NCBI GenBank assembly: GCA_013152275.1
Contig: JAADGS010000045.1
Span: forward strand, 1 to 64,000
Length of the DNA stretch: 64,000 nt
From: Actinomycetota bacterium
GTDB taxonomy: Bacteria; Actinomycetota; Acidimicrobiia; Spongiisociales; UBA4744
Direction: 5' to 3'
Each line of letters starts with the position of its first letter. The first letter of the stretch is position 1. A model generated the notes under the pieces. That model saw only the letters and a list, made by a program, of their open reading frames with translations. It made no database searches and was not told the DNA's origin. Made by a program: the position numbers and the translations under genes. Below are positions 1 through 25,772 of the stretch, one piece after another.

Positions 1-63
1 GAACCCCCTCAGAGCCACACGCACATGCAACAAGTTGCGGGCGGTTGACTGGTTAACCGGGGA

Positions 64-669
64 GTGATGGTGATGGTGATGGTGCTGGATCGCGGCAAGC
101 TAGCGAAGATAGATCGCCGGCTGCTGGCGGAGTTGGATCATGGTGAAGGGCCGCAGACGGTGAAGGTCCCCTTGTCAGATGCGGCATGGTCGACATGGCG
201 AAGATACTGTGACGTGCTCGGGCTAACGATGGGGGAGGGTATCGCCGGTTTGATCGACAGCGAGCTGACAGCGGTAGTCGACGTCGGTGGCTTGGACAGC
301 AGCTCTGTGGTGTTCGCGGGTCGAGCCGAAGAACAGTTGGTAGCACGGGAGGCGCAGATCGGTGCACGTGAGCATGACGTCATGGCGGCGGAGGAGCGTC
401 TCCGCAGGCAGAACGAGCGGCTGCGCCATTGGAGTGAGCTTCTCCGAATACGAGAGGATGAACTCGATATCCGAGAGTGGCGTCTCGAGGCGACTACCAA
501 CCTGTCGAGCCAGCGTCAGCCAGCTGGCACCAAGGTCGGTCGCAACGAGCGGTGCCCCTGCGGATCTGGTCTGAAGTACAAGCACTGCCACGGCCTGCCC
601 GGTCGTCAAACAGACCGACCAACCCCATTAGGAGCCTCTCACTGCCGGTTCCCAATCCGTGAGGGATGA
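64..669 (+). CDS. SEC-C (Zn-binding) motif protein with central coiled coil
   Basis: C-terminal [21 protein letters not shown] is a canonical SEC-C motif; GGAG precedes tandem GTG/ATG starts, so the exact start is uncertain. Confidence 0.8.
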
Positions 670-759
670 CGGAGCTGAAGACCTCCTTCAGCTTCAGACC
701 TGGAGGAAGTCCGTGCATGCGCTGGCAGAACCGTTCGGTGTGATCGGGTGTATGTTCTC

Positions 760-1506
760 TCACGGAGAGGGCAGGTTTGCGATGTCGGATGGCGTGATCC
801 CGACCTTGGAGAGCAGATCGGAGGTGTGGATCGGGCAGTCGGCTTGGATGGCCAACTGATCGGCAATATCGGCCGGAATGTACATCCCTTCTACTCCCAA
901 TCCGACCTCGGCACCCGCGGGAAAGCCAGCGTACGGGTTCCAGCTATCGAGTCCGCCCTCGAGGAATGCGTCCAACGACGGCGGATCAGGAGCTGGTACG
1001 CCGTGGTCGAGGAGGCACTGCGTGAGCCAAGTGTACGCGTGGTACATGACGGTCAGATAGGCCTCAGAGAAGGGAGGGTCCACCACGAGCCCGATGTCGA
1101 TGGCCTTCTGCCAGCATGCCTGGGATGCCTGGCCGAGCGTCCTTTGCGAGATCTGCTCTGGGACGGTGAGCCCGCGACCGTCATCCCGCAGGCTAACGGC
1201 GTACCCGAGGTCGGTCAGACAGGCCCATACGTACTGCCAGTGATCGACTCCTCCCTTGAAGAAAGGACCGGTTCGAGATCCTGTGTAGCTAACCGGCCAG
1301 TCTGGTAGATCACCAGCCGTGACGGCACCATCCAGGCTTGCAGTGCTCGGTGTAGGCGAAGTGCTTGTCGTGACTGTCGATGTCGATGATGCCAAGGCCG
1401 GAGATAATGGCAGTGTTGTGGTTGGCTGCGCGCTGGAGCAGCCAACCACAACAACGACCAGACCCACCAGCGAGCCCAGCCGCGCTGCGGCGCCGAATCG
1501 ACTCAC
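760..1506 (-). CDS. Putative lipoprotein with duplicated CLxDxG motif
   Basis: GTG start overlaps the upstream TGA (GTGA); hydrophobic run then lipobox VVG-C, S/T-rich linker, motifs CLTDLGY and CLLDHGVPAPDPPSLDAF...WNPY. Confidence 0.75.
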   Translation of the reverse strand: MSRFGAAARLGSLVGLVVVVVGCSSAQPTTTLPLSPALASSTSTVTTSTSPTPSTASLDGAVTAGDLPDWPVSYTGSRTGPFFKGGVDHWQYVWACLTDLGYAVSLRDDGRGLTVPEQISQRTLGQASQACWQKAIDIGLVVDPPFSEAYLTVMYHAYTWLTQCLLDHGVPAPDPPSLDAFLEGGLDSWNPYAGFPAGAEVGLGVEGMYIPADIADQLAIQADCPIHTSDLLSKVGITPSDIANLPSP

Positions 1507-1784
1507 GTTTTGCAGGCCCCGTATCCCCCACCCGGAGCATTCACGATCCAGGACCGGTAGCCGGTTCGCCATGTCCAGGTCAGGACAAGTGTGCCATCCG
1601 AGTCGTAGTAAGTGCCCGGTGTTCCTTGGACCCAGTGGTACTGCAGTCCAGCACCGTATCCGACTGTTCTCGGATATCCGCCGGTTTGGCAGTTCATCGA
1701 TCCTGATGAGGCAGCGGCTGGTAGTGCCATCATGGCGATGAGCAGGCCGAGCACCGCGATGATTGTGATGGTTCGTCTGAGCAC
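1503..1784 (-). CDS. Small secreted peptide (93 aa, two Cys), bacteriocin-like precursor candidate
   Basis: GAGGAA RBS then GTG; Sec signal LRRTITIIAVLGLLIAMMALPAAA; G/W/Y/T-rich mature part with Cys near each end. Confidence 0.7.
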   Translation of the reverse strand: MLRRTITIIAVLGLLIAMMALPAAASSGSMNCQTGGYPRTVGYGAGLQYHWVQGTPGTYYDSDGTLVLTWTWRTGYRSWIVNAPGGGYGACKT

Positions 1785-2066
1785 GTAGTGTTCCTCATCG
1801 TGTTGGGTGGCGGCGGGACGGCGTAGCAAGTTAGTTCCGTCGCCACTCGGCCAGTGAAGACAGATGATCTCTGTCGTTGATCGGTCCCCCTTATGTCGCC
1901 TGGTAGTCGTACTGTCGCGCAAGATTGTTCCAGACGCAAGGCTCGGTTTTCCCAACCTTTGGGCGGACCGAGGACCCGCCCCACTTGGGGAGTTCTTCGC
2001 CTGTTCTCTGCCAGCCTTTGGGGAGGCGGTGGCTAGATTGGGTCGGGTCAGGTTAGTAGAGGTTGG

Positions 2067-3131
2067 GTGGTGTTTGTGAGGTGGGGCCGTGTGTTGGTGT
2101 TGCTGCTGGTTGTGGTGGCAGCCGCCGGTGGGGGCTTCTGGGCTGGCAGGGTGGCGTTGGAGCCGCCGTCGAATCCGCTTGATGAGACCGTACAGCCGGT
2201 TGTGTACACGGTGGAGGATGGGACGGTCGGCCGGTCGTTGACGTTCACTGCGGTCGCGGAGTGGGATCTGACGCCGGTGGGGGAGAACTCGGCCGGCGGG
2301 GTGGTGACGTCGGTGCAGGTCGCAGCGGGTGACACGGTGTCTGCCGGTGATGTGTTGTATTCGGTGAATCTGCGTCCCGTGGTGATCGCCGAAGGTGCGG
2401 TGCCGATGTTCCGGTCGCTGGCGGTGAAGTCGGATGGTTCGGACGTTGCGCAGCTTCAGTCGTTCCTGTCCGGGTTGGGGTTGTTTTCGGGTGATGTGGA
2501 TGGTTCGTTCGGGTCGTCTACTCGTAGTGCGGTGAGGGCGTGGCAGGCCTCGTTGGGTGTGTCTGACACGGGTGTGGTCGAGGCGGGGGATCTGGTGTTC
2601 GTGCCGGTCTTGCCTGTCCGGGTCGCGTTGTCGGATGAGGTGTGGGTGGGTGCACGGCTGGCTGGTGGGGAGCGGGTGGTGCAGGTGGTGCCGTCAGATC
2701 CGGTGTTTCGGATCCCGCTGGCGATCGAGCAGGCGTCGCTGGTGCCGTTGTCGGCCGATGTGTTCGTGACGTATCCGGATGGGGTGTGGGATGCGCGGAT
2801 CGTGCAGGCGTCCGAGTCGCTCGAGACGGGGCAGTTGAATCTGATTTTGGAGGGGATCGGTGGCGGGTCGGTGTGTGGCGATGTGTGCGCCGACTGGGTC
2901 GGGTTGACCGACCGGAGCGACTTCCGTGCCGAGGTGGTGGTGATCCCGGAGACGAACGGTCCGGCTGTGCCGGTCGCTGCGATCAGTTCCGGGCCGGGCA
3001 ATCAGGCGTATGTGATGGCTCCCGACGGGTCGCAGCTGCCGGTGACCGTGATCGAATCGTCCAACGGACTGTCGATCGTCGACGGGATCGCCGCCGGTAC
3101 CGAGATTCTGTTGCCTGTCACCGGCTCATGA
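2067..3131 (+). CDS. Peptidoglycan-binding domain efflux adaptor (membrane-fusion-like) protein
   Basis: N-terminal TM; GVVTSVQVAAGDTVSAGDVL barrel motif; PG_binding-like GSDVAQLQSFL...DGSFGSSTRSAVRAWQ...TG. Confidence 0.85.
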   Translation: MVFVRWGRVLVLLLVVVAAAGGGFWAGRVALEPPSNPLDETVQPVVYTVEDGTVGRSLTFTAVAEWDLTPVGENSAGGVVTSVQVAAGDTVSAGDVLYSVNLRPVVIAEGAVPMFRSLAVKSDGSDVAQLQSFLSGLGLFSGDVDGSFGSSTRSAVRAWQASLGVSDTGVVEAGDLVFVPVLPVRVALSDEVWVGARLAGGERVVQVVPSDPVFRIPLAIEQASLVPLSADVFVTYPDGVWDARIVQASESLETGQLNLILEGIGGGSVCGDVCADWVGLTDRSDFRAEVVVIPETNGPAVPVAAISSGPGNQAYVMAPDGSQLPVTVIESSNGLSIVDGIAAGTEILLPVTGS

Positions 3132-3763
3132 TCACCGTCGAGGATCTTGTTTTCGGGTACCGGCGGGACGAAACGATCCTGGACGTGGTGTCGCACCGGT
3201 TCGAGGAGGGGTCCGTGACGGCGGTCACGGGAGCGTCGGGACGAGGCAAGTCGACACTGCTGTATCTGATCGGTCTGCTGTTGACGCCGTGGTCGGGGAC
3301 GATCAGTTTCGATGGGGAGAATGTCGGTGCACGGGCGGATCGACGCCGCTCGGAGTTCCGTGCGGCCCGGATCGGGTTCGTGTTCCAGGACGCGGCGTTG
3401 GATCCGGCCCGAACGGTGTTGGACAACATCATCGAAGTGTCGAATTACACGCGGATCCGTCGACGTGACGCCGTCGAGCAGGCCGAGGAGCTGATGCAAC
3501 GCTTCGATGTGGGGTTGCGGGCGGATTACAAGCCGGGGGAGGTATCGGGCGGGCAGGCGCAGCGGATCGCGTTGTGTCGCGCGCTGCTCGCGTCACCCGA
3601 CGTGATCCTTGCCGACGAACCGACCGGCAACCTCGATGCCCGAACCGCCGATGTGGTCATCGACGCGCTCGCCGGTTTGGCGCACGATGAGGACAAGACG
3701 GTGATCATCGCTACACACGACGCAACGGTCATGGCCGCCTGTGATGCGAGGTGGGCACTGTGA
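3128..3763 (+). CDS. ABC transporter ATP-binding protein (LolD/MacB-like)
   Basis: ATGA overlap; Walker A GASGRGKS, signature [23 protein letters not shown]. Confidence 0.95.
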
Positions 3764-4839
3764 AACTGGTTATCGAGTCTGCCCGCACCGCACTGGCCCA
3801 ACCGGTGTCGTCGATCGTGACGGCGCTCATCGTGGCGGGGGTTGTCGCGGCGATCCTGTCGACGACCGGCCAAACCGTCCAAGCTGAACGCCAGGTCCTG
3901 TCACAGATCGACGCAGCCGGGACCCGGTCGATCGTCATCTCGGACACGAAAGGCACCGCAGGGATCAGCCCCGACGCTGTCGATCGCATCAGCCGCCTCA
4001 GCGGGGTCCAGTGGGTGATCGGCCTCGGACCGGCCACCGACGTGCGGCCGGCAGCCAACCCTGGAGGAGACCCGGCAGCGATGCGTGCCCTCTACGGCAC
4101 CATCCCGCCACAACTCGACATCCCCAGCGGCATCCCACCCGCCGGTCAGGCCGTCATCGGACCCGACGCGCAAACCACCCTCGGCCTGCTCCTGCCGGTC
4201 GGGGGGACCATCACCAACGACTCCAGCGTCGCGGTGGTCGGCGGGTTCAAAGCGACCGATCCGCTCACGTTCCTCAACCGTGGTCTGCTCACCGGGCCCG
4301 GCCCTTCCGACACGCAACTACGGGCGATCTACATCCTGGTTACCGCGCCCGATGAGGTCGCCAGTGTCGCCGATGCCGCCTACCTCGTCCTCGCACCCAG
4401 CGACTTGTCGTCGGTCGGGATCCAAACCTCCGAGACCCTCGCACAGGTCAGGGCAGCCGTCCAGGGAGAACTCGGACGCTACGGCCGCAACCTCGTCACC
4501 CTCGTTCTCGCCGCCGGACTTGTCCTCACCGGACTGAACGTCTACGGGACCGTCACGACACGCCGCCGCGATTTCGGACGCCGCCGCGCGTTGGGTGCCA
4601 CCCGACCCACCATCATCGGGCTCATCGCCACCCAGACCGCACTCACCGCGTTGGTGGGTGCGTTGATCGGTACGGTCGCTACCTGGCTGATCCTCACCCG
4701 GGCAACCGGCACTCCACCCGATCCGACCTTCACGCTCGCCATCGACATCCTCGCCGTCGTCACCACCACCATCGCCGCCATCCCACCAGCAACCATCGCC
4801 GCCTACCGCGACCCCGTCCGCATCCTCCGAGTGCCATAG
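3760..4839 (+). CDS. FtsX/MacB-like ABC permease
   Basis: GTGA overlap; N-terminal TM, extracytoplasmic domain, [13 protein letters not shown] motif, C-terminal DPVRILR. Confidence 0.9.
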
Positions 4840-4951
4840 GGAACAAGAAGGAAGCGGAGAGTCAGCTGAGAGCCCTTGGGCCACACCGCGACCACAAGCA
4901 GCGAGAAACAGCGCAAATCGATGCGAACTCGAACCGACGCGAACTCCCAGT

Positions 4952-5887
4952 TCAGAGGCTGCTTTCGAGCATTCCTCCCAGGCCACACGGTTGTACTCGG
5001 ATACCCTTGAGCCGGCCTTTCAAGCCGGAAACGCTAGTTCGAATCTGGTCGGGGCTGCGAAACGGCCCCTGCTCAGCGACGAAGACTTCCAGCGTCCTGT
5101 CGTCGAGAAGGCGGTCGATCAAGTCGGCGGAACCGGCGATGTAGGTCGAGGACCAATCGATGTCGGTCGATACAAACCATGCGCGGTCGGCCGGCCACCA
5201 GAAACTCGGCGGCGTGTTGTTGAACACCCAGTCATCATTGCGGTCGGAGGGAGTCTCGATCGAGCCCCGATGGAGGAGGTAGCGGCGTCCGCTGTGGGTA
5301 AGCGACGGGCTGACGTCGACCAATGGGCGTGGGTCGTCCGCGGGCCGACGGTGTCGCCTCCGGCTCCTGCGTCGGTTCCACCACCGCCCTCTGGCCTGCA
5401 GAGGAACACCGGTCCCGTATCCGTACCAGACGAGCAGCCACAGCAGGCCCGGGGTGGAGGTCGCTTGGGCGAGGATCTCAGCCAGCCGATCAACGAGCGG
5501 CCGCTCGAGCTCACCTTCCATTGGGAGAGATGCTCCTTGGCGCAGCCAAGACATCCCATCGTCGCGAACCGAAAGGTCATGGATCGAAGAGGTGGCGTCG
5601 AACGGTTTGCCGCTCCAGCCGCTGATCTGGCTCCACGGCACCGACCGTTCCGAGATGTGGTCGACGGCTTGCTTCCTGACATGAGCCGGGTGGAGAACCC
5701 TGGCGTAGCGCTCGAAGTCGTCGGGGATCCACGAACGGAGTGATCGGCCGTAGACGAGACGTCCCCGCACCCAATCCACTGGGTCGTGATCCGTCAGAGG
5801 CTCTGAGTCGATGCGTATTCCGACTTCGAGCCTCCTTTCTCTCGGCTGCAACGATACCTGCACGGAGCAACGCCAGACTGGATCCAC
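4952..5887 (-). CDS. Conserved hypothetical protein (actinobacterial type)
   Basis: Protein-like motifs FERYARVLHPA and PSFWWPADRAWFVSTDIDWSSTYIAGS; both ends uncertain. Confidence 0.65.
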   Translation of the reverse strand: MDPVWRCSVQVSLQPRERRLEVGIRIDSEPLTDHDPVDWVRGRLVYGRSLRSWIPDDFERYARVLHPAHVRKQAVDHISERSVPWSQISGWSGKPFDATSSIHDLSVRDDGMSWLRQGASLPMEGELERPLVDRLAEILAQATSTPGLLWLLVWYGYGTGVPLQARGRWWNRRRSRRRHRRPADDPRPLVDVSPSLTHSGRRYLLHRGSIETPSDRNDDWVFNNTPPSFWWPADRAWFVSTDIDWSSTYIAGSADLIDRLLDDRTLEVFVAEQGPFRSPDQIRTSVSGLKGRLKGIRVQPCGLGGMLESSL

Positions 5888-6118
5888 GCTCTGGGTCTCA
5901 CTAGCGCGGCCGAATCGAGCGGTTGCTCGAAGTCAGCCTCCGCCCGACAAGAGGCGCCGCGCTCAAGGTGAACGTTCAAGCCGCGTGCCTATCGCGTGCA
6001 CATGGCAGTGAGAACCACCGGAAAACAGTGCAAGACGATGAGTGGCCAGAGAGCGGCCCCACCTGGCGTTTCTCTCGTGATCCGCCTTCTACCAGGGCGC
6101 GTCGAAACAGGTCCGGAA

Positions 6119-6153
6119 GCCTTCACACAGCAGAGGTCATTAGTGCGGGTCCC
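6119..6153 (+). other. Degenerate tRNA-Val(CAC)-like fragment (probable att relic)
   Basis: GCCTTCACACAGCAGAGGTCATTAGTGCGGGTCCC resembles the anticodon-to-T-arm part of tRNA-Val(CAC); no D arm or acceptor stem. Confidence 0.4.
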
Positions 6154-6230
6154 GATGCACTCTCCCGGCCGGGATCTGGCGCTCGGTTAGGGCGCAGGTT
6201 CCTGGATCCGGGCACGTAATCCGCGTGACG

Positions 6231-6306
6231 TCATGCTGCGACAGAGTACAACCTGGCGAGTGGCGCTGGACGTGTAGTCAGCTCTCGTATCGGTCCTCCG
6301 ACACCA
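6231..6306 (+). mobile_element. att-junction relic 1 (recombinase tail + tRNA-Leu-like core)
   Basis: Ends CCTCCGACACCA; minus strand reads GVGGPIRELTTRPAPLARLYSVAA*. Confidence 0.65.
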
Positions 6307-6624
6307 ACATACCCGCTGGTAACAGGGGGTGTTTGCACCACGTCCTGGTTCGGACTGACTCGGCGCGAATGCGCGATGGGGATATTCTCGCGGCGAAGAC
6401 TCAGCCGGCATCGTGGCGGTGCGGCCCTGGAAACCGCCACGCGTATTGCCGGATATGGGCGGCTCGCCTGTGGGTTGTTTGGCATCCAGGCCGCGCGTTA
6501 TGGGTGGTGCCCATGCCCCCACGACTCCGGCGAGCGTCCTTTTGGGGTGCCTGCCCTACGAGGCCTGCGGGTCTTGACATGGCTCGGCCCATTAGAACGC
6601 CAATCCGACCCGGGTTTTCAGCTG

Positions 6625-6747
6625 TTACAAAGGTTTCTGCTCATTGGCCTTGGCTGCCTTCTTGTCCTTCTTGGCCTGGCGTTTCTCCTTCAGGCTGCTG
6701 GACGCGGCCTTCTTGCTGCTCCTTCCGCCCTTGTCTTTCTTCGCCAT
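6625..6747 (-). CDS. 40-aa Lys-rich basic small protein
   Basis: AAGGAGG RBS 5 nt before ATG; MAKKDKGGRSSKKAASSSLKEKRQAKKDKKAAKANEQKPL*; below the ORF-track cutoff. Confidence 0.75.
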   Translation of the reverse strand: MAKKDKGGRSSKKAASSSLKEKRQAKKDKKAAKANEQKPL

Positions 6748-7141
6748 GGGTGCCTCCTTGCGGACCGCCTGCGATGACGGCCATGCCCCATTCTGTCACA
6801 CAGGCACGATCTGGCCTCATAGGTCACCGAGGCCAGGTCAGCTCCGCATGTTCTCGGATCGGCCATTGAGCGGAGCCCAGCTTCGGTGAGAGGCCCGTCA
6901 AGTCGCTCTCTGACGGCCCGATCGAAGAGCGGGTTCGGCTGGATGTGCTCAAGATTGGAGCTACCCGCATCAGCGCACTGATCACCCAACCTGATCCCGC
7001 GGTAAACGTAAAGCGTCGGAATACCCCATAACAGCGGGTTCCCGAGCCATATTGGTCTGATCACCAAACAGCGCCGAACGGCACGTATCGAGCGGTGGCT
7101 CACAGCAGGTAGTTGACGTTTCCCGTCCGGGCCGTCGTCAA

Positions 7142-8299
7142 TCACCTAGCGGGCCCTGCCGCCAGCTGAGTTCTCTTGACGTTCATCGACGTTGCCCGAC
7201 CTCCCCACTCCCTAAGTCGCCACGCCGGGTGGTTGTCACGCGTTGAGGTTCCTCCGACACGAACCCCAAGTACATGGCGTGCCCCGGCGGCTACGTGTGC
7301 GCGTCCGTCGGAGTGGTGGGTGAGGTTGACTCCGAGTTCTTCGTAGATGGCCCGTTTGTCGGCGGGATCGGCATCGGCTGGCACGGCGACGATGTCGCGT
7401 AGTTGGGTGACGAGTGCTTTGATCTCGGTCTCGGTGAGTTTGCGTGGTGTGGGTTTGCGGCCGAGTTCTCGTTTCAGACTTCTGCGTTCTCGCTCGGTCT
7501 CGGCGATCCAAGTGACGGCGATAATGATGTCGGCGTCGTGTTCGAGGAGTGCCCGGTACTTGGCGAGCTTGGTGTCGCATTCCTCGAGCCGGCGGCGCAG
7601 CTCGAGGCCAGGGCTTTCATCGGGTATGGCCCCGCTGGCGGCGGCCGGGGTCTGGGCGGTGGCATCGAGATGGTCATCGTCGGAGAGGCTGCCGATCCAG
7701 ACGTCGAGAGCGGGCACGATGGCGTCCTCACGCACGTAGATGGTCTTGGCGTGTTGTTGCTTGGTCACGGCGTACTCGGCGGGGAACTTGCATCGATAGT
7801 AGGGCTTGCCGTTGTTCCAGGATCCCTGCATCCTGCGGTCGCACACAGCACAGCGGATCAGCCCTGAGAGTACGTAGGCATGCTTGGTGCGATCTCGACG
7901 GACCGCGCCGGCGCGTTGGGTGCCGGCAAAGACGTCCTGGGCAGCCTGGTAGGTCTCGGCGTCGATGATGGCTGGAAGGGTCGGGTTCTGCGATCAGATC
8001 CAGTCGTCGGGGTTGTTCCATCGCATTCTGGTTTGGTGGCCGAGGGCGACGTCGTTGACGTCGATGAGGGTTTCGTCGCGGCGTTGACGGTTCCAGACTT
8101 GGTGCCCGGTGTAGCGGGGGTTGCGGGCAGGGTCGTGAGCGGAGGGAGAGGGGATCCCGTCTGCGGTGAGTCCCTCGGCGATCGCATACAGACCTTTCCC
8201 GGCAAGGTACTCGGCGAAGATCCTCTGCACGACCGGCGCGACTGTCGGGTCAAGCTCGAGCTTCTTCAGCGTTTGGCCGGCGGCGGCTTTGGCGGGGTG
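7142..8299 (-). pseudogene. Large serine recombinase remnant (recombinase + Zn-ribbon + coiled-coil domains)
   Basis: VVQRIFAEYLAGKG...NPRYTGHQVWN; LSGLIRCAVCDRRMQG...YYRC; in-frame TGA at 7994-7996; N-terminal catalytic domain absent. Confidence 0.9.
7238..7260 (+). mobile_element. att-junction relic 2, inside the 3' end of the recombinase gene
   Basis: TTGAGGTTCCTCCGACAC; the recombinase frame reads VRVGGTSTRD across it. Confidence 0.65.
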
Positions 8300-8408
8300 G
8301 CATTGGCGGCGTCGGCAGTCGGTGCAACGGCAAGGCTTGCCGCTATGGCCAGAGCCAACGCTCTGGTACTTCAGCGGGACAGGCTCCCGCGGTCTCGTTT
8401 CCGCAGCT

Positions 8409-9143
8409 TCAAGACTGTCCCCTCGCTGATTGTCGACTTGCGTTTGCACTGCCGGCTGAGTTCCTTCCTCCTCTTTGTCTCTGCTCCACCCGGCTCGCCA
8501 CACATGTGAAAACAACCCAGAGGACGACGACATTGATGATCGCCCCGATGATGTCGAGGTGTGCGATGAACGGATTGAACGTGGGAGACGAGAGCCGATT
8601 CGGGAATGTGATCCATGCAACGGGCCAACCGGCGACATAATCGATCCGGGAGTAGAACCGGGCTGGTCCCGAAGGGACACGCACCGTGAACATGGCGATC
8701 ACCACGCTCACACCCAAGGCGAACCACGCCAGTCTCACCAGCCGTCGCCTCGTCAGGTATGGACCGAGTGAGACGAGAAACAGAGCAGCGAGCGAACCCC
8801 AGGCGATCACATCGAACACTGCGGCGTCGACACTGAACTCCCCCTCCGAAAACTGCGGACCTAGGAAGACGTTCAGTTCAGCAGCCGAGTCGTCTGGAGG
8901 CAGCTGGTTCGAGAATCGGTCCTCGCTCAAAAAGGGCCGTGGCAGTCCGTAGTTGCAGAACGGCTGGATTCCGGCATCGAGAATGCCCTTCTCATCGTAC
9001 TGGAGGATGCTCACCGATGCCGGCATCGCACACGTATGGGCGAAGAGAGACAAGAACGTCGCCACAAGCCCGACCCCAAGCGAGATCACTGCAATCAGCC
9101 ACAGGCGCAAATGGGGTCTTCGAACGGTTTCATCCCTGGTCAT
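8409..9143 (-). CDS. Hypothetical membrane protein (4 TM, internal duplication)
   Basis: GGAGG RBS then ATG; two TM-loop(G-x-P)-TM units (YGLPRPFL / AGWPVAWI). Confidence 0.7.
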   Translation of the reverse strand: MTRDETVRRPHLRLWLIAVISLGVGLVATFLSLFAHTCAMPASVSILQYDEKGILDAGIQPFCNYGLPRPFLSEDRFSNQLPPDDSAAELNVFLGPQFSEGEFSVDAAVFDVIAWGSLAALFLVSLGPYLTRRRLVRLAWFALGVSVVIAMFTVRVPSGPARFYSRIDYVAGWPVAWITFPNRLSSPTFNPFIAHLDIIGAIINVVVLWVVFTCVASRVEQRQRGGRNSAGSANASRQSARGQS

Positions 9144-9567
9144 GTCACCCTCCGTACGCTCAAGCGCATGCTCGCGCCCGAGCTGTCGCACAATACATCG
9201 AAAGGCTTCTGCAACCCGAAAAGAGACACTCGGTAATCAACCGGCAACGGACCCCTACACCGATACCTCGAAACACCCGAAACACTCAAACCGACCAACC
9301 CAGAATCTGAGCAAGAAAGCCGAACCGGGACACCTCCGATGCGGAGATCGCGATGTGCTGGGACCGGGGGAACCGTTCGCGGGCTGCGGCGGCGTGAGGT
9401 CGTGCCGCTGTGGCATTGGGGGTGTGATGCGGCCCCCTTCTCGTCAGCGCCTGCTACACGATGCGGGGCTGGGGTTGACGAGAGTGCGCGACAGGGTCCG
9501 GTCGTTGAGGGCACACGATCGGCCGAGAAGTGTTTGGCAGGGCTTGTATGATCGCCAGGAGGTTCGG

Positions 9568-10131
9568 ATGCGGCGTGTGATGGTGGGGCTGGTGCTGTTA
9601 CTGGCGGCCGGGTGTGCCCGGTTGCCGGTGGGTTCGGGACCTGTGTCGGCGTCGCGGGTGTCGGAGGTCACGGGGGAGTCGACGATTCCTCGGTGGCCTC
9701 CGGTGTCGTTGTTGCCGGATGAGTTCTTTCCGCGGCTGGTGGCGTGTCTGAACGATCACGGATACCCGGTGACGCTCGGGCCGAACTACACGATCACCGG
9801 AGGCGGGTTGATCGGGGATCGGGGGGCGTACAAGGAGATCAGAGAGGAGTGCATCCGCGATGTGGATCCGTCGTATTCGGAGGACCCGCCGCCGTTCACC
9901 CAGGAGCAGTTGGAGAGCCTGTACCGGTATCTGCAGGGGGTAGTGGCGTGTCTGGCCGGGTTGGGGTATCCGCAGGTAGAGATGCCATCGTTTGAGCGGT
10001 TCTCGACCGATCTACGGGGAAGGTTCGATCCGGTTTCGGCGCTCGTTGACGATTACGGGGTGTTTCCGTCCGATGCGGATATCGCAACGTGCCGTGACCA
10101 GGGTAAGCCGTCATGGTTCGTGGCGCCATAG
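9568..10131 (+). CDS. Lipoprotein, paralogue of 760-1506
   Basis: TATGAT -10 and AGGAGG RBS; lipobox LAAG-C; CLNDHGYPV and CLAGLGYPQVEMPSFERF. Confidence 0.85.
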   Translation: MRRVMVGLVLLLAAGCARLPVGSGPVSASRVSEVTGESTIPRWPPVSLLPDEFFPRLVACLNDHGYPVTLGPNYTITGGGLIGDRGAYKEIREECIRDVDPSYSEDPPPFTQEQLESLYRYLQGVVACLAGLGYPQVEMPSFERFSTDLRGRFDPVSALVDDYGVFPSDADIATCRDQGKPSWFVAP

Positions 10132-10293
10132 GCGCTCACGCTGCAACAGGTTTGGACCTTGATCGTCGCCTGGGGTTTCCCGACTGGACCGTTGCGCAAA
10201 GAATACGACGACGTCCCGATGGGCCCTATCGGGAACCCATGCGTGGTGCGGCATCTGATCGTTGCCCCCGCGATCGTGAGAGCATGCTGATCG

Positions 10294-10695
10294 ATGGGTC
10301 TACGGGTTCGACCTGGTTCTGCACGCCGACGGGCTCGGTGCGAACTGGGCAGCGTACCCAAAGAACAGAACTACCTCACGTTGGCGGTAGCCATTGCCTG
10401 TCGCGCCGGACTGCACATCCCCGATCGAGTTCCCCACACCGAGGAGGAGTGGGCGGAGATGCTCGCCTACGAGATCGCTCTACTGGATTGTGTGGCCGGT
10501 CTGGGCTATCCGGTGCCGTCGCCGCCGTCGTTGGATATGTACATCTAGTCGAATGGGAACTGGCCCGCCTGCGACCTGGTGCCAAACATCGTCGGTCCCG
10601 CATGGGAAGGGCTGGCGAGAACCTGCCCGCAGGGTCCCGTCGGTGAGCTCGGAGCCTGGGACCCGGGCGACCCGATCAGGCCGTACGAGCCGTAG
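10294..10695 (+). pseudogene. Truncated third lipoprotein paralogue
   Basis: LDCVAGLGYPVPSPPSLDMYI, in-frame TAG at 10546-10548, then SNGNW...RTCPQ; no signal peptide; 5' boundary approximate. Confidence 0.7.
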
Positions 10696-10838
10696 TCGGC
10701 AGGGTTTCCTCGCTCTTGTCAAGGTGGGCGTCGCTGTTCTCCTGGTTGGTCCGAGCCGCCGATCGGGAGCACGGCCGGGCAGTCCGACAAGAGGCACCAC
10801 GACGTGCCCGGCACGGCCTGCCCTCGTAGAGACACGGG

Positions 10839-10905
10839 TCACGCGATGACCAGCCGTGTCTGCCACGCGTCGCGTGTACTTGGGTTGAAGTCCCCCTCCG
10901 ACACC
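10839..10905 (+). mobile_element. att-junction relic 3
   Basis: GGGTTGAAGTCCCCCTCCGACACC (T-arm/acceptor-like); minus strand reads GVGGG/STRDAWQTRLVIA* across a frameshift. Confidence 0.75.
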
Positions 10906-10988
10906 GTTGCCGGCTACACGCGCCCGGGACTCGACGAGGGCCCGGCTGTCGGTAGGCAGGAAGTCTCTCTCATGTGCTCGCCAAAGGT

Positions 10989-11020
10989 GTAGACGAACCA
11001 GTCTACGAGTTGGTGTACAC
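10989..11020. promoter_or_regulatory. Putative TA autoregulatory operator palindromes
   Basis: GTAGAC-N6-GTCTAC and GTGTACAC immediately upstream of the antitoxin ATG. Confidence 0.5.
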
Positions 11021-11025
11021 AGCCT

Positions 11026-11262
11026 ATGAGTACAACGATCAGAGTGAGCGAGAACACTCGCGATCGGTTCGCAAGGCTTGCGGATGCGACCGGGCGTCCG
11101 ATGACTCAGCTGCTTGATGAGGCTGCTGATGCGCTCGAGCGTCGTCTGTTCTTCGATCAGATGAGCAGGCGGTTCGAGGAACTCCGGCACGACGGGTCGG
11201 CGTGGGTCGAGATTGAAGCTGAGCGTGCCCTGGAGAACGGCGGTGCCGGTGACCAGTCCTGA
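11026..11262 (+). CDS. Type II antitoxin (RHH-like, MazE position)
   Basis: MSTTIRVSENTRDRFARLA N-terminus typical of ribbon-helix-helix; stop overlaps the toxin start. Confidence 0.8.
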   Translation: MSTTIRVSENTRDRFARLADATGRPMTQLLDEAADALERRLFFDQMSRRFEELRHDGSAWVEIEAERALENGGAGDQS

Positions 11263-11600
11263 TGACACCGCGCAGGGGTGAGGTCTGGCTGATTGACTCC
11301 GGTAAGCCGGTCGGGCGTGAACAGTCCGGGCGTCGCCCCGCCGTGGTGGTCTCCGCAGATGCACTCAACGAGGGTCCCGCCGGTGTGATCATGGTGGTTC
11401 CTTGCACCACCGCCCGTCGAGGACACCCGTCTCACATCGAGATCGAACCTGGGGACTCGAGTCTCGACGTGGTGAGCTACGCCAAATGCGAGGACCTCAA
11501 GTCGATCTCCGAGCAGCGGTTCACCACCCGCGTTGGGCAGGTCGGCCCCGATGCGATGTTTGGGATCGGTCGGGTGCTTCGTTTCCTCCTCGAACTCTGA
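11262..11600 (+). CDS. mazF: PemK/MazF family endoribonuclease toxin
   Basis: RRGEVWL...GREQSGRRPAVVVS...VVPCTT motifs. Confidence 0.93.
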   Translation: MTPRRGEVWLIDSGKPVGREQSGRRPAVVVSADALNEGPAGVIMVVPCTTARRGHPSHIEIEPGDSSLDVVSYAKCEDLKSISEQRFTTRVGQVGPDAMFGIGRVLRFLLEL

Positions 11601-11703
11601 CGCTGCCGGCCGGCACGCGGACCCGAACGTTCATCGCACAAGCAAAGACTCCGCCCCGCCAACACACTGCTGGTTCCAGGAGGCACCACCGACCGAGATC
11701 TCC

Positions 11704-11773
11704 TCATGCAGCGATCAACCATGCCTCTCACGGGTCGCGTGTACCTGGGATTGGGATCCCCCCTCCAGCACCA
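11704..11773 (+). mobile_element. att-junction relic 4
   Basis: GTCGCGTGTACCTGGG...TCCCCCCTCCAGCACCA, an imperfect direct repeat of relic 3; minus strand reads GAGGGIPIPGTRDP*EAWLIAA*. Confidence 0.7.
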
Positions 11774-11879
11774 ATGGTCCCAAGGGTTGTGGCCCTCAGG
11801 GCCGTTCCACGTTTGAGGTTTGAAGTGACGGATTGCAGCCAACATGCTGCCCGATGTATACACGCAAAAGGGCGAGACG

Positions 11880-12320
11880 GTATCGACGGATTTGGATCGG
11901 GGCATCCTCGCCGGGATCGACCGGAGGATCCTGTCTGGCGTCGGCAACGATGAACGCCAAGATGGTCAGGGTGTTGGTCGTAGCGGCGATGTGGTCGACA
12001 TGCCGGCCGCACTGCACGGTGTCTGTCGATGGGGAGCGAAGTCGTGGGATCGATCGGTCACGAGTTTGACACCATCGCCGGCCAGGACAAGGACGACAGG
12101 TCCGCGTTCAGCACCGAGCTGAAACGGAAGCTCGTCGCATACGGCAAGCGACCTCGACGCTCGAGATCGACGCCTCAACGACTGGGAACAGTCGCTCGGA
12201 GCACTCGAGTAGCGGCCGATCAGGAGGAGGCGATCACCGCTCGCCTCCACATCGGAGATCGGACGCAACGCGCAGTGCCCCTGCGGCTCCGGCTCGAAGC
12301 AGAAGCACTCTTGTGGCCTC
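11880..12320 (+). pseudogene. Frameshifted paralogue of the SEC-C gene at 64-669
   Basis: LDRGILAGIDRRIL, MVRV...AMWSTCRPHC and EIGRNAQCPCGSGSKQKHSCGL are colinear with 64-669 but separated by frameshifts. Confidence 0.75.
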
Positions 12321-12344
12321 GCCGGTCGCCGCGCGCGATGTCGG

Positions 12345-13124
12345 TCACGCGTCAAGCTGAGCCAGCCAGGGTCTCAGATGGTCGTCGCTCTCGATGAGTC
12401 GGGTCATGTTCGTGCGAATGGTCGTCACGAGTTCGCTTCGCGCCACGCCTCGGACATCAGAGAGCTTGTCAACGATCTCACCGATGAGGGCGGGGTATCC
12501 CGTGTCACCGGTCAGCCACCGTAGACCGCCGGGGTTGTCGGTTTCGGTCAGCAACTGCTCCGCGGGTATCGCGCGTGCAACGTCTCGCACGTGATCTGAA
12601 TGCAGTACTTCGACTCCGACACTGAACATGAGGCCTGTCTCGATCAGCCGGCCCAGGACATCGAGCGGCCCGGAATACCAGTGGATGATTCCTCGGTCGA
12701 CGCCGTACCGTACAAGCAGGTCGGTAGTGTCTTGTTCGGCGCCGGCACAGTGAACGCTGATTACCTTGTCCTGGTCTCGGGCGAGGCGGAGCAACCTTTC
12801 AAAAACCTGCCGTTGGGCCGGGTAGAGGCTCTGATCTGTGACGAAGCGGTAGTCGAGCCCTATCTCTCCGATCATCGGACTGCGTTCGGCAAACTCGTCG
12901 AGATCATCAATCGAGTCAGCGTATCTGGGTGCCTCCCAAGGCTGTATTCCGAAGGAAGGCACCACGAATTCTGACCGTGCTGCGATCTTCTCCGTTCTGA
13001 CAAACGAAGGGACGTCGATCGAAACGCCGAGCGTGAGAATCCGTTGACGCTCAATCGTGTCGAGAACTTCGACGAGTTCCTCGTCGCCGTACTTGTCGAC
13101 ATGCGAATGAGCATCGACGTACAT
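12345..13124 (-). CDS. TatD family hydrolase
   Basis: DAHSH, IGEIGLDY, SVH, IIHWYSG, LLTETDNP. Confidence 0.95.
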   Translation of the reverse strand: MYVDAHSHVDKYGDEELVEVLDTIERQRILTLGVSIDVPSFVRTEKIAARSEFVVPSFGIQPWEAPRYADSIDDLDEFAERSPMIGEIGLDYRFVTDQSLYPAQRQVFERLLRLARDQDKVISVHCAGAEQDTTDLLVRYGVDRGIIHWYSGPLDVLGRLIETGLMFSVGVEVLHSDHVRDVARAIPAEQLLTETDNPGGLRWLTGDTGYPALIGEIVDKLSDVRGVARSELVTTIRTNMTRLIESDDHLRPWLAQLDA

Positions 13125-13233
13125 GCGTTCTCCAGAGCGAAACGATCCGCCGCAACCCTACCTGTTCCCCCCATCCTCACGTGCGAGCGGTGCTACCGAA
13201 GGAAGGAGCACCTCGGCGTGCATCGAGAGCCGC

Positions 13234-13464
13234 TCAGTGGGGGTGTTCCTCATCACGCTCAGCGTCACGCTGCACACGCTCCTCCTTGCGTCGGAGGTCG
13301 GCCTGCACACGCTCCTCCTTGCGTCGGAGGTCGGCTTGCACGCGTTCCTCCTTGCGTCGGAGGTCGGCTTCCTCGCGTTCCTCCATGCGTTCGCGCTCGT
13401 AGCGCTCGTTGTCCTCTTTGCGTTCGCGCTCGTGGCGCTCCGCACTTTCCTCATCGGTTTCCAT
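13234..13464 (-). CDS. Highly charged E/R-rich small protein with ADLRRKEERVQ repeats
   Basis: GGAG then ATG (METDEES...); start uncertain (alternative 13518). Confidence 0.5.
   Translation of the reverse strand: METDEESAERHERERKEDNERYERERMEEREEADLRRKEERVQADLRRKEERVQADLRRKEERVQRDAERDEEHPH
13270..13368. repeat. 33-bp tandem repeat x3
   Basis: Unit CTGCACACGCTCCTCCTTGCGTCGGAGGTCGGC, third copy imperfect. Confidence 0.95.
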
Positions 13465-14038
13465 GCCACGCTCCAGCGCTCGAGTATCCGCGTTTCCTCG
13501 CCTGTGAGGGTATCGCATTTGAGAGCCGCCGTCGCCGCAGCGAAGTCGTGCCCACGGACGTGCGCATGTCGTGCGGATCGTGTTCGACCATGAGGGCGAC
13601 TCTGGCTCGCAGGGGGCGACGATCCGTTCGATCGTGGAAGGCCTCCTGGAACCATCCAGCCACGTCCAAGCCACGGTGCGGCGTGAACTCTTGCCGGGGG
13701 AGTGGCTCCTGGCGCGACAGGGTGAGGTCCCCGACAGACAGAGGTCCCCGACAGACAACGGTCGCATAGGGAGCATTCCTGAAACGACTCAGGGGAGCAA
13801 GTGCTTCCGACGCCGTAGCCGACCATAGGCGGCCGGAACTCGACAAGGACCGGCAGTCCTGATGGCAGCCGACCTCGCTTCCCATCTCTTCGTGGACGGC
13901 GGCGAGCAAATCCTCGTCCACGGCTGCTTCTTTGCCGCCGCACGGCCGGACTTGGCCTTGGGACTCCGGGTCGGCACCTTCGCTGAGAGTGAACTCGGGA
14001 TCGGGTCTTGCCGGTTCCCGGGTTGACCAGCCGGCTGT

Positions 14039-15784
14039 CTATCTGTACATCGCGTCGATCTCGGCGGCGTAGTGATCTCTTATCACCTTGCGTCTCACCT
14101 TGAGGGTGGGCGTGAGCTCGCCGCGCTCGATCGAGAAGGGTTCCTCGAGGATTGTGAACCTCTTGATCTGCCGTACTCGGGCAAGGTTCTGGTTCGCCTC
14201 GTCGATCGCCGCCTGGACGGCGCGCTCGACCGCGGCGTCGTCGAGGCCCATCTCCTCGACGGCTTCCGCGTCGAGTGATACCAGGACGGTGAGATAGGGC
14301 CTCAGGTCCCCGATCACGATGGCGTCGCCGATGATCGGAGCCGTTTTCAGCTCGACCTCGATGAGCGATGGGGTTACATTCTCACCGCCCGAGGTGATGA
14401 TGATGTCCTTCTTGCGATCGGTGATGAAGAGGAATCCGTCATCGTCGATATATCCGACATCGCCGGTGCGGAGAAAGCCGTCCTCGCTCAACGCCTCTGC
14501 CGTCGCCTCCGGATTCTTCAAGTACCCGAGGAAGTTGTTTGGGCCGCGGGTCAGGATCTCGCCGTCTTCGGCGATCTTCAGTTCGACCTTCGGGAGGGCA
14601 GTACCCACCGACCCGAAGCGGTTGTTGGTGGGACGGTTGAACGCACACAGACCCGTGCACTCGGACAGACCGTAGACGTTGAGAATCTGCAGCCCGAGGC
14701 CTGCGAAGAACTCGGGGATCGAGATCGAGAGCGGCGCAGCGGCCGAGAACGCGAACCGAGCCTGATCGAGACCCATCGCCCCCTTCGCCTTCGAGTAGAC
14801 GAGCTTGTCGAACAGCCTGTACTGCAGGCCGAGCCACGCACCCGGTGTCTGCCCCCGGTTGATGGCGTCGACATGCCGTCTCCCGACGGTCAACGCCCGG
14901 TCTACGAGCACCTTTTTCGCGCCGGCAGCGCTACTCACTGCTTCATTCACGCCGGCGTAGAACTTCTCCCAAACCCGTGGCACCGCAAAGAACACCGTTG
15001 GGCGGACTTCTTTGATGGTTTCTGCGAGGCGTCTGATGTCCGTCTCGTAGTAGACCATGTGACCACTCACCGCCGGTGTGATGAGGGTTATGACTTGCTC
15101 GGCGATGTGCGAAAGGGGGAGATAGGAGATCACCCGGTCCTCGGGACCCACCGGGACGATGTCGATGAGGACTCTGGCCATGTATGCCAGAGCCTCATGG
15201 GGCAGCACGACCGCCTTTGGAGGTCCGGTGGTGCCCGACGTGTAGATGAGGGTCCCTCCGTCGCGCGGGCCGAGAGCGTCGAGCCTGGTGTCGACGGTGT
15301 CATCGGAGATATCGCGGCCGCCTGCGACGAACTCGTCCCAGGTCAGGACGCCTTCTACACCGACCGCGTCGTCGCTCATGAGCACGATGTGATGCAGACC
15401 CGGCAGCTCGGAGCGCTTGACCAGGATCTTGTCCAGCTGCTCCAGATTCTGAACGAGGACCACAGGCGACTCGGAATGGTCGATGACGTACGCGCACTCC
15501 TTCGGCGTGTTGGTTGCGTAGATTCCTGCGGGCATCGCACCGATTGCCATGGCGGCGACGTCGAAGACGACCCACTCGGGCTGGTTGGTCCCGAGGATGG
15601 ACACCGGCATGCCGGGTTCGACACCGAGCGCGATCAGTCCCTTCGCGGCGTCACGAATCTGAGACGCGTACTCGGTCCAGCTCGTTGTCACCCAACGATC
15701 GCCGTCGCGCACGGCGTACGCGGGCAGGGCGCCCCGCTCGGTTCCGGTTGCCAGGATCTTGTGGACAATGCTCTCGAACGCCAC
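14039..15784 (-). CDS. fadD: Long-chain fatty acid-CoA ligase (FadD15-like AMP-dependent synthetase)
   Basis: AAGGAGG then GTG; YTSGTTGPPK, YGLSE, LRTGDVG, DRKKDIIITSGGENV. Confidence 0.93.
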   Translation of the reverse strand: MAFESIVHKILATGTERGALPAYAVRDGDRWVTTSWTEYASQIRDAAKGLIALGVEPGMPVSILGTNQPEWVVFDVAAMAIGAMPAGIYATNTPKECAYVIDHSESPVVLVQNLEQLDKILVKRSELPGLHHIVLMSDDAVGVEGVLTWDEFVAGGRDISDDTVDTRLDALGPRDGGTLIYTSGTTGPPKAVVLPHEALAYMARVLIDIVPVGPEDRVISYLPLSHIAEQVITLITPAVSGHMVYYETDIRRLAETIKEVRPTVFFAVPRVWEKFYAGVNEAVSSAAGAKKVLVDRALTVGRRHVDAINRGQTPGAWLGLQYRLFDKLVYSKAKGAMGLDQARFAFSAAAPLSISIPEFFAGLGLQILNVYGLSECTGLCAFNRPTNNRFGSVGTALPKVELKIAEDGEILTRGPNNFLGYLKNPEATAEALSEDGFLRTGDVGYIDDDGFLFITDRKKDIIITSGGENVTPSLIEVELKTAPIIGDAIVIGDLRPYLTVLVSLDAEAVEEMGLDDAAVERAVQAAIDEANQNLARVRQIKRFTILEEPFSIERGELTPTLKVRRKVIRDHYAAEIDAMYR

Positions 15785-25092: not shown

Positions 25093-25772
25093 AGTTCCTC
25101 CTCGGCATCAAATAGCTCTTGCGCAGCTCGATAGGCGGCTTCCATATCGCCACGCCGCACGTGCTGGAAGGTCTCGTCGCCGATCAGCCGGCGCCAGGCT
25201 CGGCGCCTTTGCGCCGGATCGGTGAAACGGTCGGCCACCTCCGGCCTGAGGTTGCCCAGCAGGTCGAGATAGGCCCCGTACTCGGGTCCGATGCCGTGCG
25301 CGATCCGGTCTCGAAGCCAGACGGAGAACGCCGGCGCCAGACCGCTGGAGGAGACCGCAACGACAAGATCGCCCTGCCGGTGTACCGCCGGAAGGATGAA
25401 GTTGCAGTGGTGCGGGTCATCGGGGGCGTTCAGCAGAATCGAGTGCTCTTCGGCCTCCTGCCACACCCGCCGGTTGACATCCCGATCCTCGGTGGCCGCG
25501 ACGGCGAGGAAGCAGCCGGTGAGGTCACCCTTCCGATACGGTCTCGGGATCCAGGCGATCCGCCTGTCCTCGAACCAGGTGAACAGACGTTCGGTCAGCT
25601 CTGGACTGACTACGGTGACGTCGCCATGGGCGGCGAGCAGACCCTCGACCTTGCCCTCGGCCACCTTTCCCCCTCCGACGACCATGCAGGATCGACCTTC
25701 CAGGCGGAGGAGGAGCGGGTAGTGTGCCGGAGTGCTCCCGGACGGTTGTGTGCCTGTGTGGGTGACGGTCAT
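25089..25772 (-). CDS. Precorrin-2 dehydrogenase/sirohydrochlorin ferrochelatase (CysG N-terminal/SirC-like)
   Basis: VVGGGKVA, NAPDDPHHCNFILPA, VAVSSSGLAP. Confidence 0.93.
   Translation of the reverse strand: MTVTHTGTQPSGSTPAHYPLLLRLEGRSCMVVGGGKVAEGKVEGLLAAHGDVTVVSPELTERLFTWFEDRRIAWIPRPYRKGDLTGCFLAVAATEDRDVNRRVWQEAEEHSILLNAPDDPHHCNFILPAVHRQGDLVVAVSSSGLAPAFSVWLRDRIAHGIGPEYGAYLDLLGNLRPEVADRFTDPAQRRRAWRRLIGDETFQHVRRGDMEAAYRAAQELFDAEEEL

Follow-up and report, generated by a model that had tools for sequence, protein, structure and literature searches.

Recombinase-tail and tRNA-Leu(GAG)-core junctions in an acidimicrobial genome: a probable tandem stack of serine-recombinase islands

Junctions and units at the locus

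The window analysed here is the first 64 kb (64,000 nt) of contig C12 (JAADGS010000045.1) in the 3.07-Mb, 100-contig genome GCA_013152275.1 of an actinobacterium of the class Acidimicrobiia (G000 where genomes are compared). Between 6.2 and 13.9 kb it carries a series of five short junctions with mutually unrelated gene units between them, probably a tandem stack left by large-serine-recombinase islands. The 10-nt core of these junctions, CCTCCGACAC, has five exact matches in the window, starting at 6295, 7251, 10895 and 43773 on the plus strand and at 9658 on the minus strand, against 0.34 ± 0.55 in shuffled sequences, with none of 100 shuffles reaching five. The first three plus-strand matches are followed in tandem by a variant with two mismatches and by a degenerate fifth junction at 13804, all in direct orientation. 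An earlier note on this DNA, written from the sequence alone, had reported four direct copies; these were confirmed, copies 1–3 as exact matches and copy 4 as the two-mismatch variant, but the fifth junction (13804–13814) had been missed. Its wording of copy 3 in wider context, GGGTTGAAGTCCCCCTCCGACACC, agrees with the sequence. Three one-mismatch matches on the minus strand are accounted for by three tandem 33-bp repeats (13283–13381), which lie in a minus-strand open reading frame (ORF; 13234–13776) and encode a repeated ADLRRKEERVQ; a similar repeat occurs in the congener G002 (locus L093, 7851–7917).

About 66 nt to the left of each core encode a conserved recombinase tail of 22–24 residues, and these P arms fall into three types (A, B and C). 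A model of types B and C (R1) was built from eight sequences and searched in 20 genomes of the family. Junction 1 consists of a type A arm (6231–6294), which on the minus strand encodes a tail ending in GVGGPIRELTTRPAPLARLYSVAA and a stop codon and is 87% identical over 53 nt to C78 (15176–15228), followed by the exact core CCTCCGACACC (6295–6305, plus strand). At junction 2 the exact core CCTCCGACACG (7251–7261, plus strand) follows a decayed arm (7171–7250, minus strand) that is read as the tail of a recombinase pseudogene (VGGTSTRDNHPAWRL...) and of which R1 matches only the last 19 nt (7243–7261, 4.6 bits). Junction 3 (10839–10905, plus strand) is a type B arm with the core CCTCCGACACC at 10895–10905, scoring 64.1 bits over 10832–10905, and junction 4 (11704–11772, plus strand) is a type B arm with the variant core CCTCCAGCACC at 11762–11772, scoring 65.5 bits over 11698–11772. 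Junction 5 (13804–13927, minus strand) combines the degenerate core CTTCCGACGCC (13804–13814) with a recombinase 3′ remnant (13806–13927, residues about 500–540; tblastn E 0.021; blastn 76–84% to C72 and C98); there is no P arm to its left. The minus-strand tails that had been proposed before copies 1, 3 and 4 are thus real, as type A and type B arms, but those of copies 3 and 4 are broken: two 1-nt deletions interrupt the tail frame at junction 3, and the tail at junction 4 carries an in-frame stop.

The flanks to the right of junctions 1 and 4 are not recombinase-like. The segment 6306–6485 (IPIAHSRR...) was considered as a recombinase remnant and dropped, as it gave no tblastn match. Hairpins acting as terminators after junctions 1 and 4 were likewise rejected, since these flanks fold no better than shuffled sequences (z −1.1 and −1.3); their counterparts in G007 form strong hairpins (z −4.7 and −6.4). 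A simple terminator scan returned six sites against 4.5 expected, none at any junction, and an inverted-repeat scan of 6200–11900 gave 91 pairs, with no terminal repeat among the 25 listed.

The units themselves are small and dissimilar. Unit 1 (6306–7250, 0.95 kb) has as its sole cargo a 40-residue basic ORF (6625–6747, minus strand), of which 36 of 40 residues are identical in the congener G001 (L104, 1306–1425) within a 500-nt block of 84% identity; tblastn found no recombinase similarity in this unit. Unit 2 starts with a large serine recombinase pseudogene (7247–8299, minus strand; tblastn 47% identity, E 7e-96), which retains residues 174–543 only and thus lacks residues 1–173 and the catalytic Resolvase domain; Pfam recognises PF07508 (E 1.4e-10) and, below the cut-off, PF13408 (Zn_ribbon_recom, E 0.004). 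Copy 2 had been placed in frame at the 3′ end of a large serine recombinase gene, which holds except that the gene is a pseudogene, broken by a single in-frame TGA (7994–7996); a frameshift was ruled out as the cause of the break. The remaining cargo of unit 2 (8409–10548) comprises a 260-residue membrane-type ORF on the minus strand and two lipoprotein-like ORFs on the plus strand (9568–10131 and 10294–10548), all without a Pfam family, and the region 9683–10127 is paralogous to C98 6607–7054 and to C43.

Unit 3 (0.87 kb) begins with a recombinase 3′ remnant of about 20 codons (10891–10950, minus strand; residues 523–542; tblastn 70% over 20 residues, E 0.32; blastn 78.6% over 70 nt to C72 3739–3808) and carries a toxin-antitoxin (TA) pair (11026–11600, plus strand), consisting of an RHH-type antitoxin (11026–11262; RHH_1 E 0.007, below the cut-off) and a MazF/PemK toxin (11262–11600; PemK_toxin E 5.8e-22), here called MazEF. 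Units 1 and 3 are each bounded by junctions on both sides and contain no recombinase gene, much as had been claimed: unit 1 shows no trace of one, but the TA unit keeps the 20-codon remnant. To the right of junction 4 follow, in order, a disrupted gene for a SEC-C-motif protein split over two frames (11844–12340, plus strand; CPCGSGSK read from the sequence, with a start similar to the C98 SEC-C gene and homology in G002), a TatD-family hydrolase gene inside unit 4 (12345–13124, minus strand; TatD_DNase E 1.1e-46), the 33-bp repeat region and junction 5 with its remnant. Cargo faces both ways, with the 40-residue ORF and the recombinase encoded by the minus strand and MazEF by the plus strand.

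At the other end, the contig starts 6.2 kb left of the array. An intact SEC-C-motif gene (64–669, plus strand; 201 residues; SEC-C E 3.3e-10), whose homologues adjoin the recombinase on C98, C78 and at several related loci, lies just inside the contig start, and window positions 1–38 match the sequence upstream of the C98 SEC-C gene; from this we take positions 1–6294 to be the body of a further element whose recombinase would lie off the contig.

Since the sequence comes from a metagenome bin, the array could in principle be an assembly chimera, collapsed at repeated recombinase or tRNA sequence. With 100 contigs the assembly is fragmented, breaks at tRNA-Leu are seen here (C72) and in relatives (G002:C41, G001:C28 and G013:C1), and depth rises over the conserved recombinase part (7928–8218). 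Assembled contigs of four runs were compared with the window. Separate contigs of run X1 span junctions 1 and 2 (5600–7964, two differences) and junctions 3 and 4 (8201–13299, nine differences), so the order of the junctions is not peculiar to one assembly; moreover, the order of junction 4 and its right flank is the same in the congener G002, and identity among the window junctions is limited to 11–25 nt. We therefore regard a chimera as very improbable. A contig of run X2 follows the left flank to 6308 and then continues into CCCAAGTACAT, a recombinase-type left end, in place of unit 1, which hints at a variant at junction 1. Another observation from run X2 is a contig (depth 7.5 of 19.1) with single-base insertions after 10881 (G) and 10891 (C), which would restore the GGGG...CCCCCC spacing of the family in arm 3; it represents a variant of junction 3, or else a paralogous junction from another strain. 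The joints listed for the run contigs have sides of 21–29 nt, none at a junction being long enough to count, and among these assembled contigs no circles were seen.

The tRNA-Leu(GAG) target, its recombinases and the P-arm tail

The genome has two copies of tRNA-Leu(GAG), on contigs C72 and C98, and both end in GGGGGTTCAAGTCCCCCCTCCGACACCA, that is, in the exact core, as had been predicted for the host tRNA. An intact 543-residue recombinase is encoded directly 3′ of each copy on the opposite strand, and its last codons, GVGGGT and a TGA stop, are the antisense of the tRNA acceptor and T-arm. The attachment core of these islands thus sits within the final codons of the recombinase gene and is identical to the tRNA-Leu(GAG) 3′ end. 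The C98 recombinase, whose N-terminus begins MRFAFYGRVSTEDQ, has the Resolvase catalytic domain (residues 4–150, E 2.9e-10), PF07508 (E 5.5e-23) and the zinc ribbon PF13408 (E 2.2e-10). Together with C78, where a full-length recombinase (13561–15189) runs on into a P-arm-type tail, the genome contains three intact paralogues; among the 20 family genomes, uninterrupted full-length recombinases were found in three (G000 with its three copies, G003 and G013).

To place this arrangement more widely, a scan of one genome per species gave 358 relatives of the recombinase, of which the best 80 loci were examined. Antisense tRNA-Leu is present in 53 of the 80 (51 GAG and 2 AAG), −18 to +111 nt away from where the recombinase match ends; of the rest, 18 could be assessed and are without tRNA-Leu, and nine end too early for assessment. 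The idea that the attP core lies inside the recombinase C-terminus accordingly holds on C98, on C72 and at these 53 loci. Where the ORF overlaps the tRNA (n = 53), 14 recombinases end in GGT, 19 read SEGGLEPP, 12 read RGDLNPH and 8 have other endings, so the tRNA is read in all three frames and the tail that it encodes is incidental. The clade extends through Acidimicrobiia (up to 75% identity) to Frankia, Nonomuraea, Actinomadura, Micromonospora, Nocardia, Streptomyces and others, and the related loci include Mycobacteriales (L081). A plasmid collection held two actinobacterial matches (51% and 45% identity, the latter on a Mycolicibacterium plasmid). A phmmer search of PDB sequences gave no matches at E ≤ 0.001 and a phage collection only distant integrases (at most 26.5% identity among the matches listed), so the assignment to the serine-integrase family follows from the Pfam domains only. 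A second copy of the tRNA core was sought within 4 kb upstream of the recombinase at the tRNA-holding loci, but only scattered two-mismatch matches and no clear attR were seen.

A protein of about 175–200 residues ending in a SEC-C motif (CPCGSG.KYKHC) adjoins the recombinase on the opposite strand on C98 (L001, 7965–8462) and C78 (L002, 12042–12554), and also occurs at several other loci of Acidimicrobiia (L005, L006, L011, L012, L052, L057, L063 and others); a role as accessory or directionality factor is conceivable. Contigs of many relatives stop 0.1–3.5 kb after tRNA-Leu(GAG) (G002:C41, G001:C28, G013:C1 and G016:C17, as well as C72 here), which indicates that metagenome bins systematically fail to assemble the stacks behind this tRNA in full.

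The overlap with the tRNA bears on the simplest alternative, namely that the repeats are mere 3′ fragments of duplicated recombinase pseudogenes, with an incidental likeness to tRNA and no role in attachment. Every junction does lie at, or can be read as, a C-terminal coding end of a recombinase. However, 53 of 80 related recombinase genes overlap a tRNA-Leu gene, P arms are present in G014 and G007 without a recombinase having been found there, the breaks between differing genomes fall exactly at the core, and the units between the repeats are mutually unrelated. We give this explanation hardly any weight.

The P arms are the second component of the system. Type A arms occur at junction 1, twice on C78, on C59 and at L057, with the consensus (G/R)VGGPIxxLTTRPAPLARxYSVxx before the stop codon; the type B tail is GVGGATSTPSTRDPWEAWLVAA and the type C tail GVGGAxRTxTPRGAPxGEFxLAA, each again followed by a stop. 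R1 gave 45 matches at E ≤ 0.01 in 27 sources, tRNA ends included, of which 33 are not tRNA ends, and P arms reaching beyond the tRNA end alone are present in 14 of the 20 family genomes. All type B arms are about 77–82% alike, and conservation of the arms ends at the stop codon of the tail. By reading the sequences, the type B arm GTGTACTTGGGGTT and the left end GAACCCCAAGTACA form inverted repeats 18–19 nt apart; at the left end of unit 2 there is a weak match to the arm model on the opposite strand (7.8 bits, E 0.12). Contig C59 (L004) begins within a recombinase 3′ remnant (1–40) and carries, 1.5 kb further on, a type A arm (1508–1560) and CCTCCGAC, followed by unrelated sequence; a possible explanation is an attR, either at a secondary site or decayed.

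Whole-unit differences among relatives

Seen in the orientation of the window, the canonical order of an element is core, recombinase (minus strand), SEC-C protein, cargo, sometimes MazEF, P arm and core, and a compact element of this kind, about 3.8 kb long, is found in G013:C2. Arrays of P arms lie behind tRNA-Leu in G014 and G007 (G014:C2, G014:C1 and G007:C15). The G014 array has the tRNA and six junctions within 9 kb, with units of 0.73, 0.89, 0.92, 4.5, 0.91 and 0.98 kb that carry, in order, HIT, VapBC-like, NYN, mixed (the 4.5-kb unit), MazEF and YbjQ genes, mostly on the minus strand. A second, 98% identical version of this locus is without the first unit (about 0.7 kb) and without the third and fourth (about 5.4 kb), and homology between the two (C1 and C2) switches within 37 and 15 shared nt at the core. 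On the right side of junction 4, the congener G002 is homologous to the window from 11759, a position within the core, for 1.8 kb at 80% identity; the left side differs. The stacking of units, with relatives differing by whole units at the core, is therefore borne out by the G014 arrays and by this boundary in G002. Junction 5 also has a degenerate counterpart in G002. The proposal that the window is missing a 3.6-kb unit of G002, made because arm 4 resembles a G002 arm (2640–2701), was dropped: with all type B arms 77–82% alike, this likeness is no proof of orthology, and only the right-flank boundary at the core stands.

The G014 bin holds both gpmA/tRNA-Leu loci (L102 and L103), 98% identical and differing in unit content, and is thus a mixture at this locus; the two versions presumably represent two strains. 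Directly after the core in four G014 units (L102 = G014:C2, at 1119, 1851, 2738 and 9107) the sequence reads GCGAG(A/G)CTGCA, and two of these share 25 identical nt before they diverge. A sequence resembling GCGAG(A/G)CTGCA follows the tRNA itself in G002 (L096 = G002:C41, 2432).

The TA unit can be followed across genera. A MazEF module with 77–83% nucleotide identity is present in G014 (two loci), G006 and G007, always just upstream of a P arm, and the homology always starts at window positions 10981–10989. In G000, G006 and twice in G014 it forms a unit of 0.87–0.91 kb with a junction on each side. These recurring units suit a rival explanation in which the units are discrete non-autonomous cassettes, akin to cis-mobilisable elements (CIMEs) or pseudo-SCC elements (staphylococcal cassette chromosome, SCC) and loosely to integron cassettes, that are inserted and excised singly at the cores by a recombinase acting in trans, with the P arm as both site and tail donor, so that the array would be a working platform. 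Small units with one gene or one TA pair do recur (0.95 and 0.87 kb in the window; 0.73, 0.89, 0.92, 0.91 and 0.98 kb in G014), and whole-unit differences break within 15 nt of the core between unlike arm types, a length that we reason to be too short for ordinary homologous recombination. The tail ORF is open in 20 of 33 arms, the X2 contig departs from junction 1 at 6308 into CCCAAGTACAT and not into unit 1, and the genome has three intact recombinases that might act.

The left ends of the MazEF units speak against such cassettes. Between the left core and MazEF lie about 55 nt of a C98-type recombinase end in the window, about 29 nt of the same type in G006 and a different type in G014, and remnants that differ in both length and type indicate at least three separate truncations and not one spreading cassette. 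In G007, MazEF is merely the right end of a 7.6-kb unit. It had been allowed beforehand that the small units might simply be deletion remnants of large elements; for the TA unit, whose remnant varies between genera, the evidence indeed points to independent deletions of larger elements. In addition, arms 3 and 4 of the window are broken, core 4 has two mismatches, the arm of junction 2 is decayed and the genes face both ways. On balance we consider singly moving cassettes unlikely.

Origin of the stack and comparison with known systems

The reading that we favour, and consider likely, is that large-serine-recombinase islands have left five junctions in a tandem stack between 6.2 and 13.9 kb. 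The small units of this stack would be non-autonomous leftovers that move or are lost only by recombination at the cores, with an intact recombinase from elsewhere. On a circle or behind another unit, the recombinase ORF passes the core into a P arm and gains the 22–24-residue tail; next to the tRNA it enters the antisense T-arm and ends at GVGGGT and a stop. Crossover would take place close to the CC/CT step where T-stem and acceptor stem meet, at the centre of the GTGTACTTGGGGTT...GAACCCCAAGTACA inverted repeat, and the left end of the element itself would rebuild the acceptor strand of the tRNA. Later arrivals would insert at the tRNA-proximal junction and give rise to hybrid P-core-P′ junctions, after which deletions would remove recombinases while addictive TA modules and junctions survive. 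Serine integrases recombine attP with attB, or attL with attR when a directionality factor is present. Two P-core-P′ junctions are not a permitted pair under these rules, a further point against cassettes that move singly, but a resident element at the tRNA could excise by pairing with any arm-core-flank junction downstream of it, taking the intervening units along in a form of cis-mobilisation. Because its only recombinase is dead and two of its arms are broken, the portion of the stack in the window most likely no longer moves unless the C98, C72 or C78 paralogues act on it.

Several observations weigh against a stack of mere leftovers. The tail ORF is open from the core to the conserved stop in 20 of the 33 arms that are not tRNA ends, so orphan arms are not decaying freely. 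Among 12 type B arms, 159 of 453 differences in the tail frame are synonymous, against 99 of 428 and 54 of 470 in the other frames (35% versus 23% and 11%), and among seven type C arms the counts are 101 of 251 against 32 of 252 and 34 of 249 (40% versus 13% and 14%); as the arm sequences are related, this excess is a pattern and not a test. The GCGAG(A/G)CTGCA left ends of the four G014 units are not derivable from a recombinase gene, nor are they hairpins, and junctions 1 and 4 likewise have right flanks of non-recombinase sequence. The small units may also be more active than the word leftovers implies, given that the 98% identical arrays of G014 differ by whole units and that no recombinase was found in this genome; the search of G014 and G007 used the recombinase of the window genome as query and G014 is 79% complete, so absence is not established. 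Finally, tRNA-Leu was not found on the contig of the array. ARAGORN detects no tRNA in 6–14 kb of the window, and the expectation of a tRNA-Leu on the left flank failed, since the contig begins inside another element; the link between array and tRNA is drawn from relatives and from this contig start. The sole ARAGORN call in the window is a tRNA-Val(GAC) at 27178–27254, inside a 586-residue ORF on the opposite strand (25769–27529), and is probably false because its ends are atypical.

In a more ambitious reading, the conserved tail would function as a switch: only on the circle or behind another arm would the recombinase be complete, and at the tRNA it would be clipped to GVGGGT, orphan arms would be selected as tail donors and landing pads, and stacks would be a form of serine-recombinase cassette exchange in which helper elements shuffle TA-anchored units. 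We put this forward as a speculative idea and hold it to be rather doubtful.

The array had also been likened to an integron. Integrons use the tyrosine recombinase IntI, folded single-stranded attC sites, an attI site with the promoter Pc, and cassettes that lack promoters and share one orientation. Integrons and the present array both consist of small gene units with recombination sites between them, but none of those integron features is seen here. The only recombinase in or near the array is the serine recombinase pseudogene and not an IntI. The sites are a coding tail and a tRNA core, and three arms folded as single-stranded DNA on both strands gave z −0.70 to +0.95 relative to shuffles, that is, no attC-like folding; the genes of the window, unlike integron cassettes, lie on both strands. 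The array is a decayed tandem stack and not an integron.

Closer parallels exist among islands. SCC composite islands of staphylococci are made by large serine recombinases (CcrAB) at a fixed site in the 3′ end of a conserved gene, and they too are tandem elements with short direct repeats and recombinase-less (pseudo-SCC) units; they differ from the stack in their target, rlmH (orfX), in having two recombinases together and in a site outside the recombinase gene. At streptococcal tRNA genes, CIMEs accrete with integrative conjugative or mobilisable elements (ICEs and IMEs), as units that have both att ends and no recombinase and are stacked and mobilised with autonomous elements. Those systems use tyrosine recombinases, unlike the serine type here, and their mobilisation has been shown experimentally, whereas that of the units in the window is hypothetical. 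The phage Mx8 (IntP/IntX) and archaeal viruses of the SSV1 type have attP inside their own tyrosine integrase gene, so that integration alters or splits the integrase C-terminus; in the present case it is a serine integrase that exchanges a tail of 22–24 residues for a few tRNA-encoded codons.

The nearest layout is that of the Dehalococcoides ssrA islands, as far as it is set out in the available portions of McMurdie et al. (2011; PMC3146451). There a large-type serine integrase of about 540 residues, DsiB, lies at the left edge of the island with an ORF that crosses attL/attP into the RNA gene, tandem stacks are delimited by direct repeats of the target 3′ end, and islands without an integration module are discussed as possible cis-mobilisable elements. 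Serine-recombinase stacks with recombinase-less units are, on the evidence of those portions, already known. The stack described here resembles them in its integrase of about 540 residues running into an RNA gene, in its tandem units and in the lack of a recombinase in some units. It differs in its target (tRNA-Leu(GAG) and not tmRNA) and in its acidimicrobial host, the likeness being drawn from the layout, and a small DsiA-type recombinase, ParB and a Mom module were not seen here. The same portions call the part of DsiB that overlaps the target divergent, whereas the P-arm tail is conserved in three types with a codon-like pattern of substitution; they also contain the authors' suggestion that DsiB is perhaps complete only on the circle or behind a neighbouring island. 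The accessible text of Ghinet et al. (2011; PMC3218068) reports eight Mycobacterium serine recombinases that integrate into one tRNA-Leu gene and calls serine-recombinase integration into tRNA genes rare. These integrative and conjugative elements of actinomycetes (AICEs), as that text presents them, share with the stack a serine recombinase, a tRNA-Leu target and an actinobacterial host, a likeness of target. Unlike them, with their replication and FtsK-type transfer genes, the window has no replication (RepSA, RepAM or Prim-Pol) or FtsK/SpoIIIE-type transfer genes among the 15 ORFs scanned against Pfam. None of the papers listed in a search of the literature dealt with Acidimicrobiia or with a conserved tail.

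Together, these results assign one defined target, the tRNA-Leu(GAG) 3′ end, to a clade of large serine recombinases that is widespread in actinobacteria, and explain their odd annotated C-termini (…GGT, …SEGGLEPP… and …RGDLNPH…) as the three antisense frames of the tRNA. They supply natural attB, attP-like and attR-like sequences and hence a candidate new integrase and site pair. For annotation, short blocks of tail and core behind tRNA-Leu flag island boundaries even where an integrase is missing. The system is of more interest for its conserved tail and for the clean unit-by-unit polymorphism of arrays where no recombinase of their own was found, and the combination of the two, with clean differences between arrays that are 98% identical, makes the idea derived from DsiB, of an integrase that would be complete only off the tRNA, directly testable.

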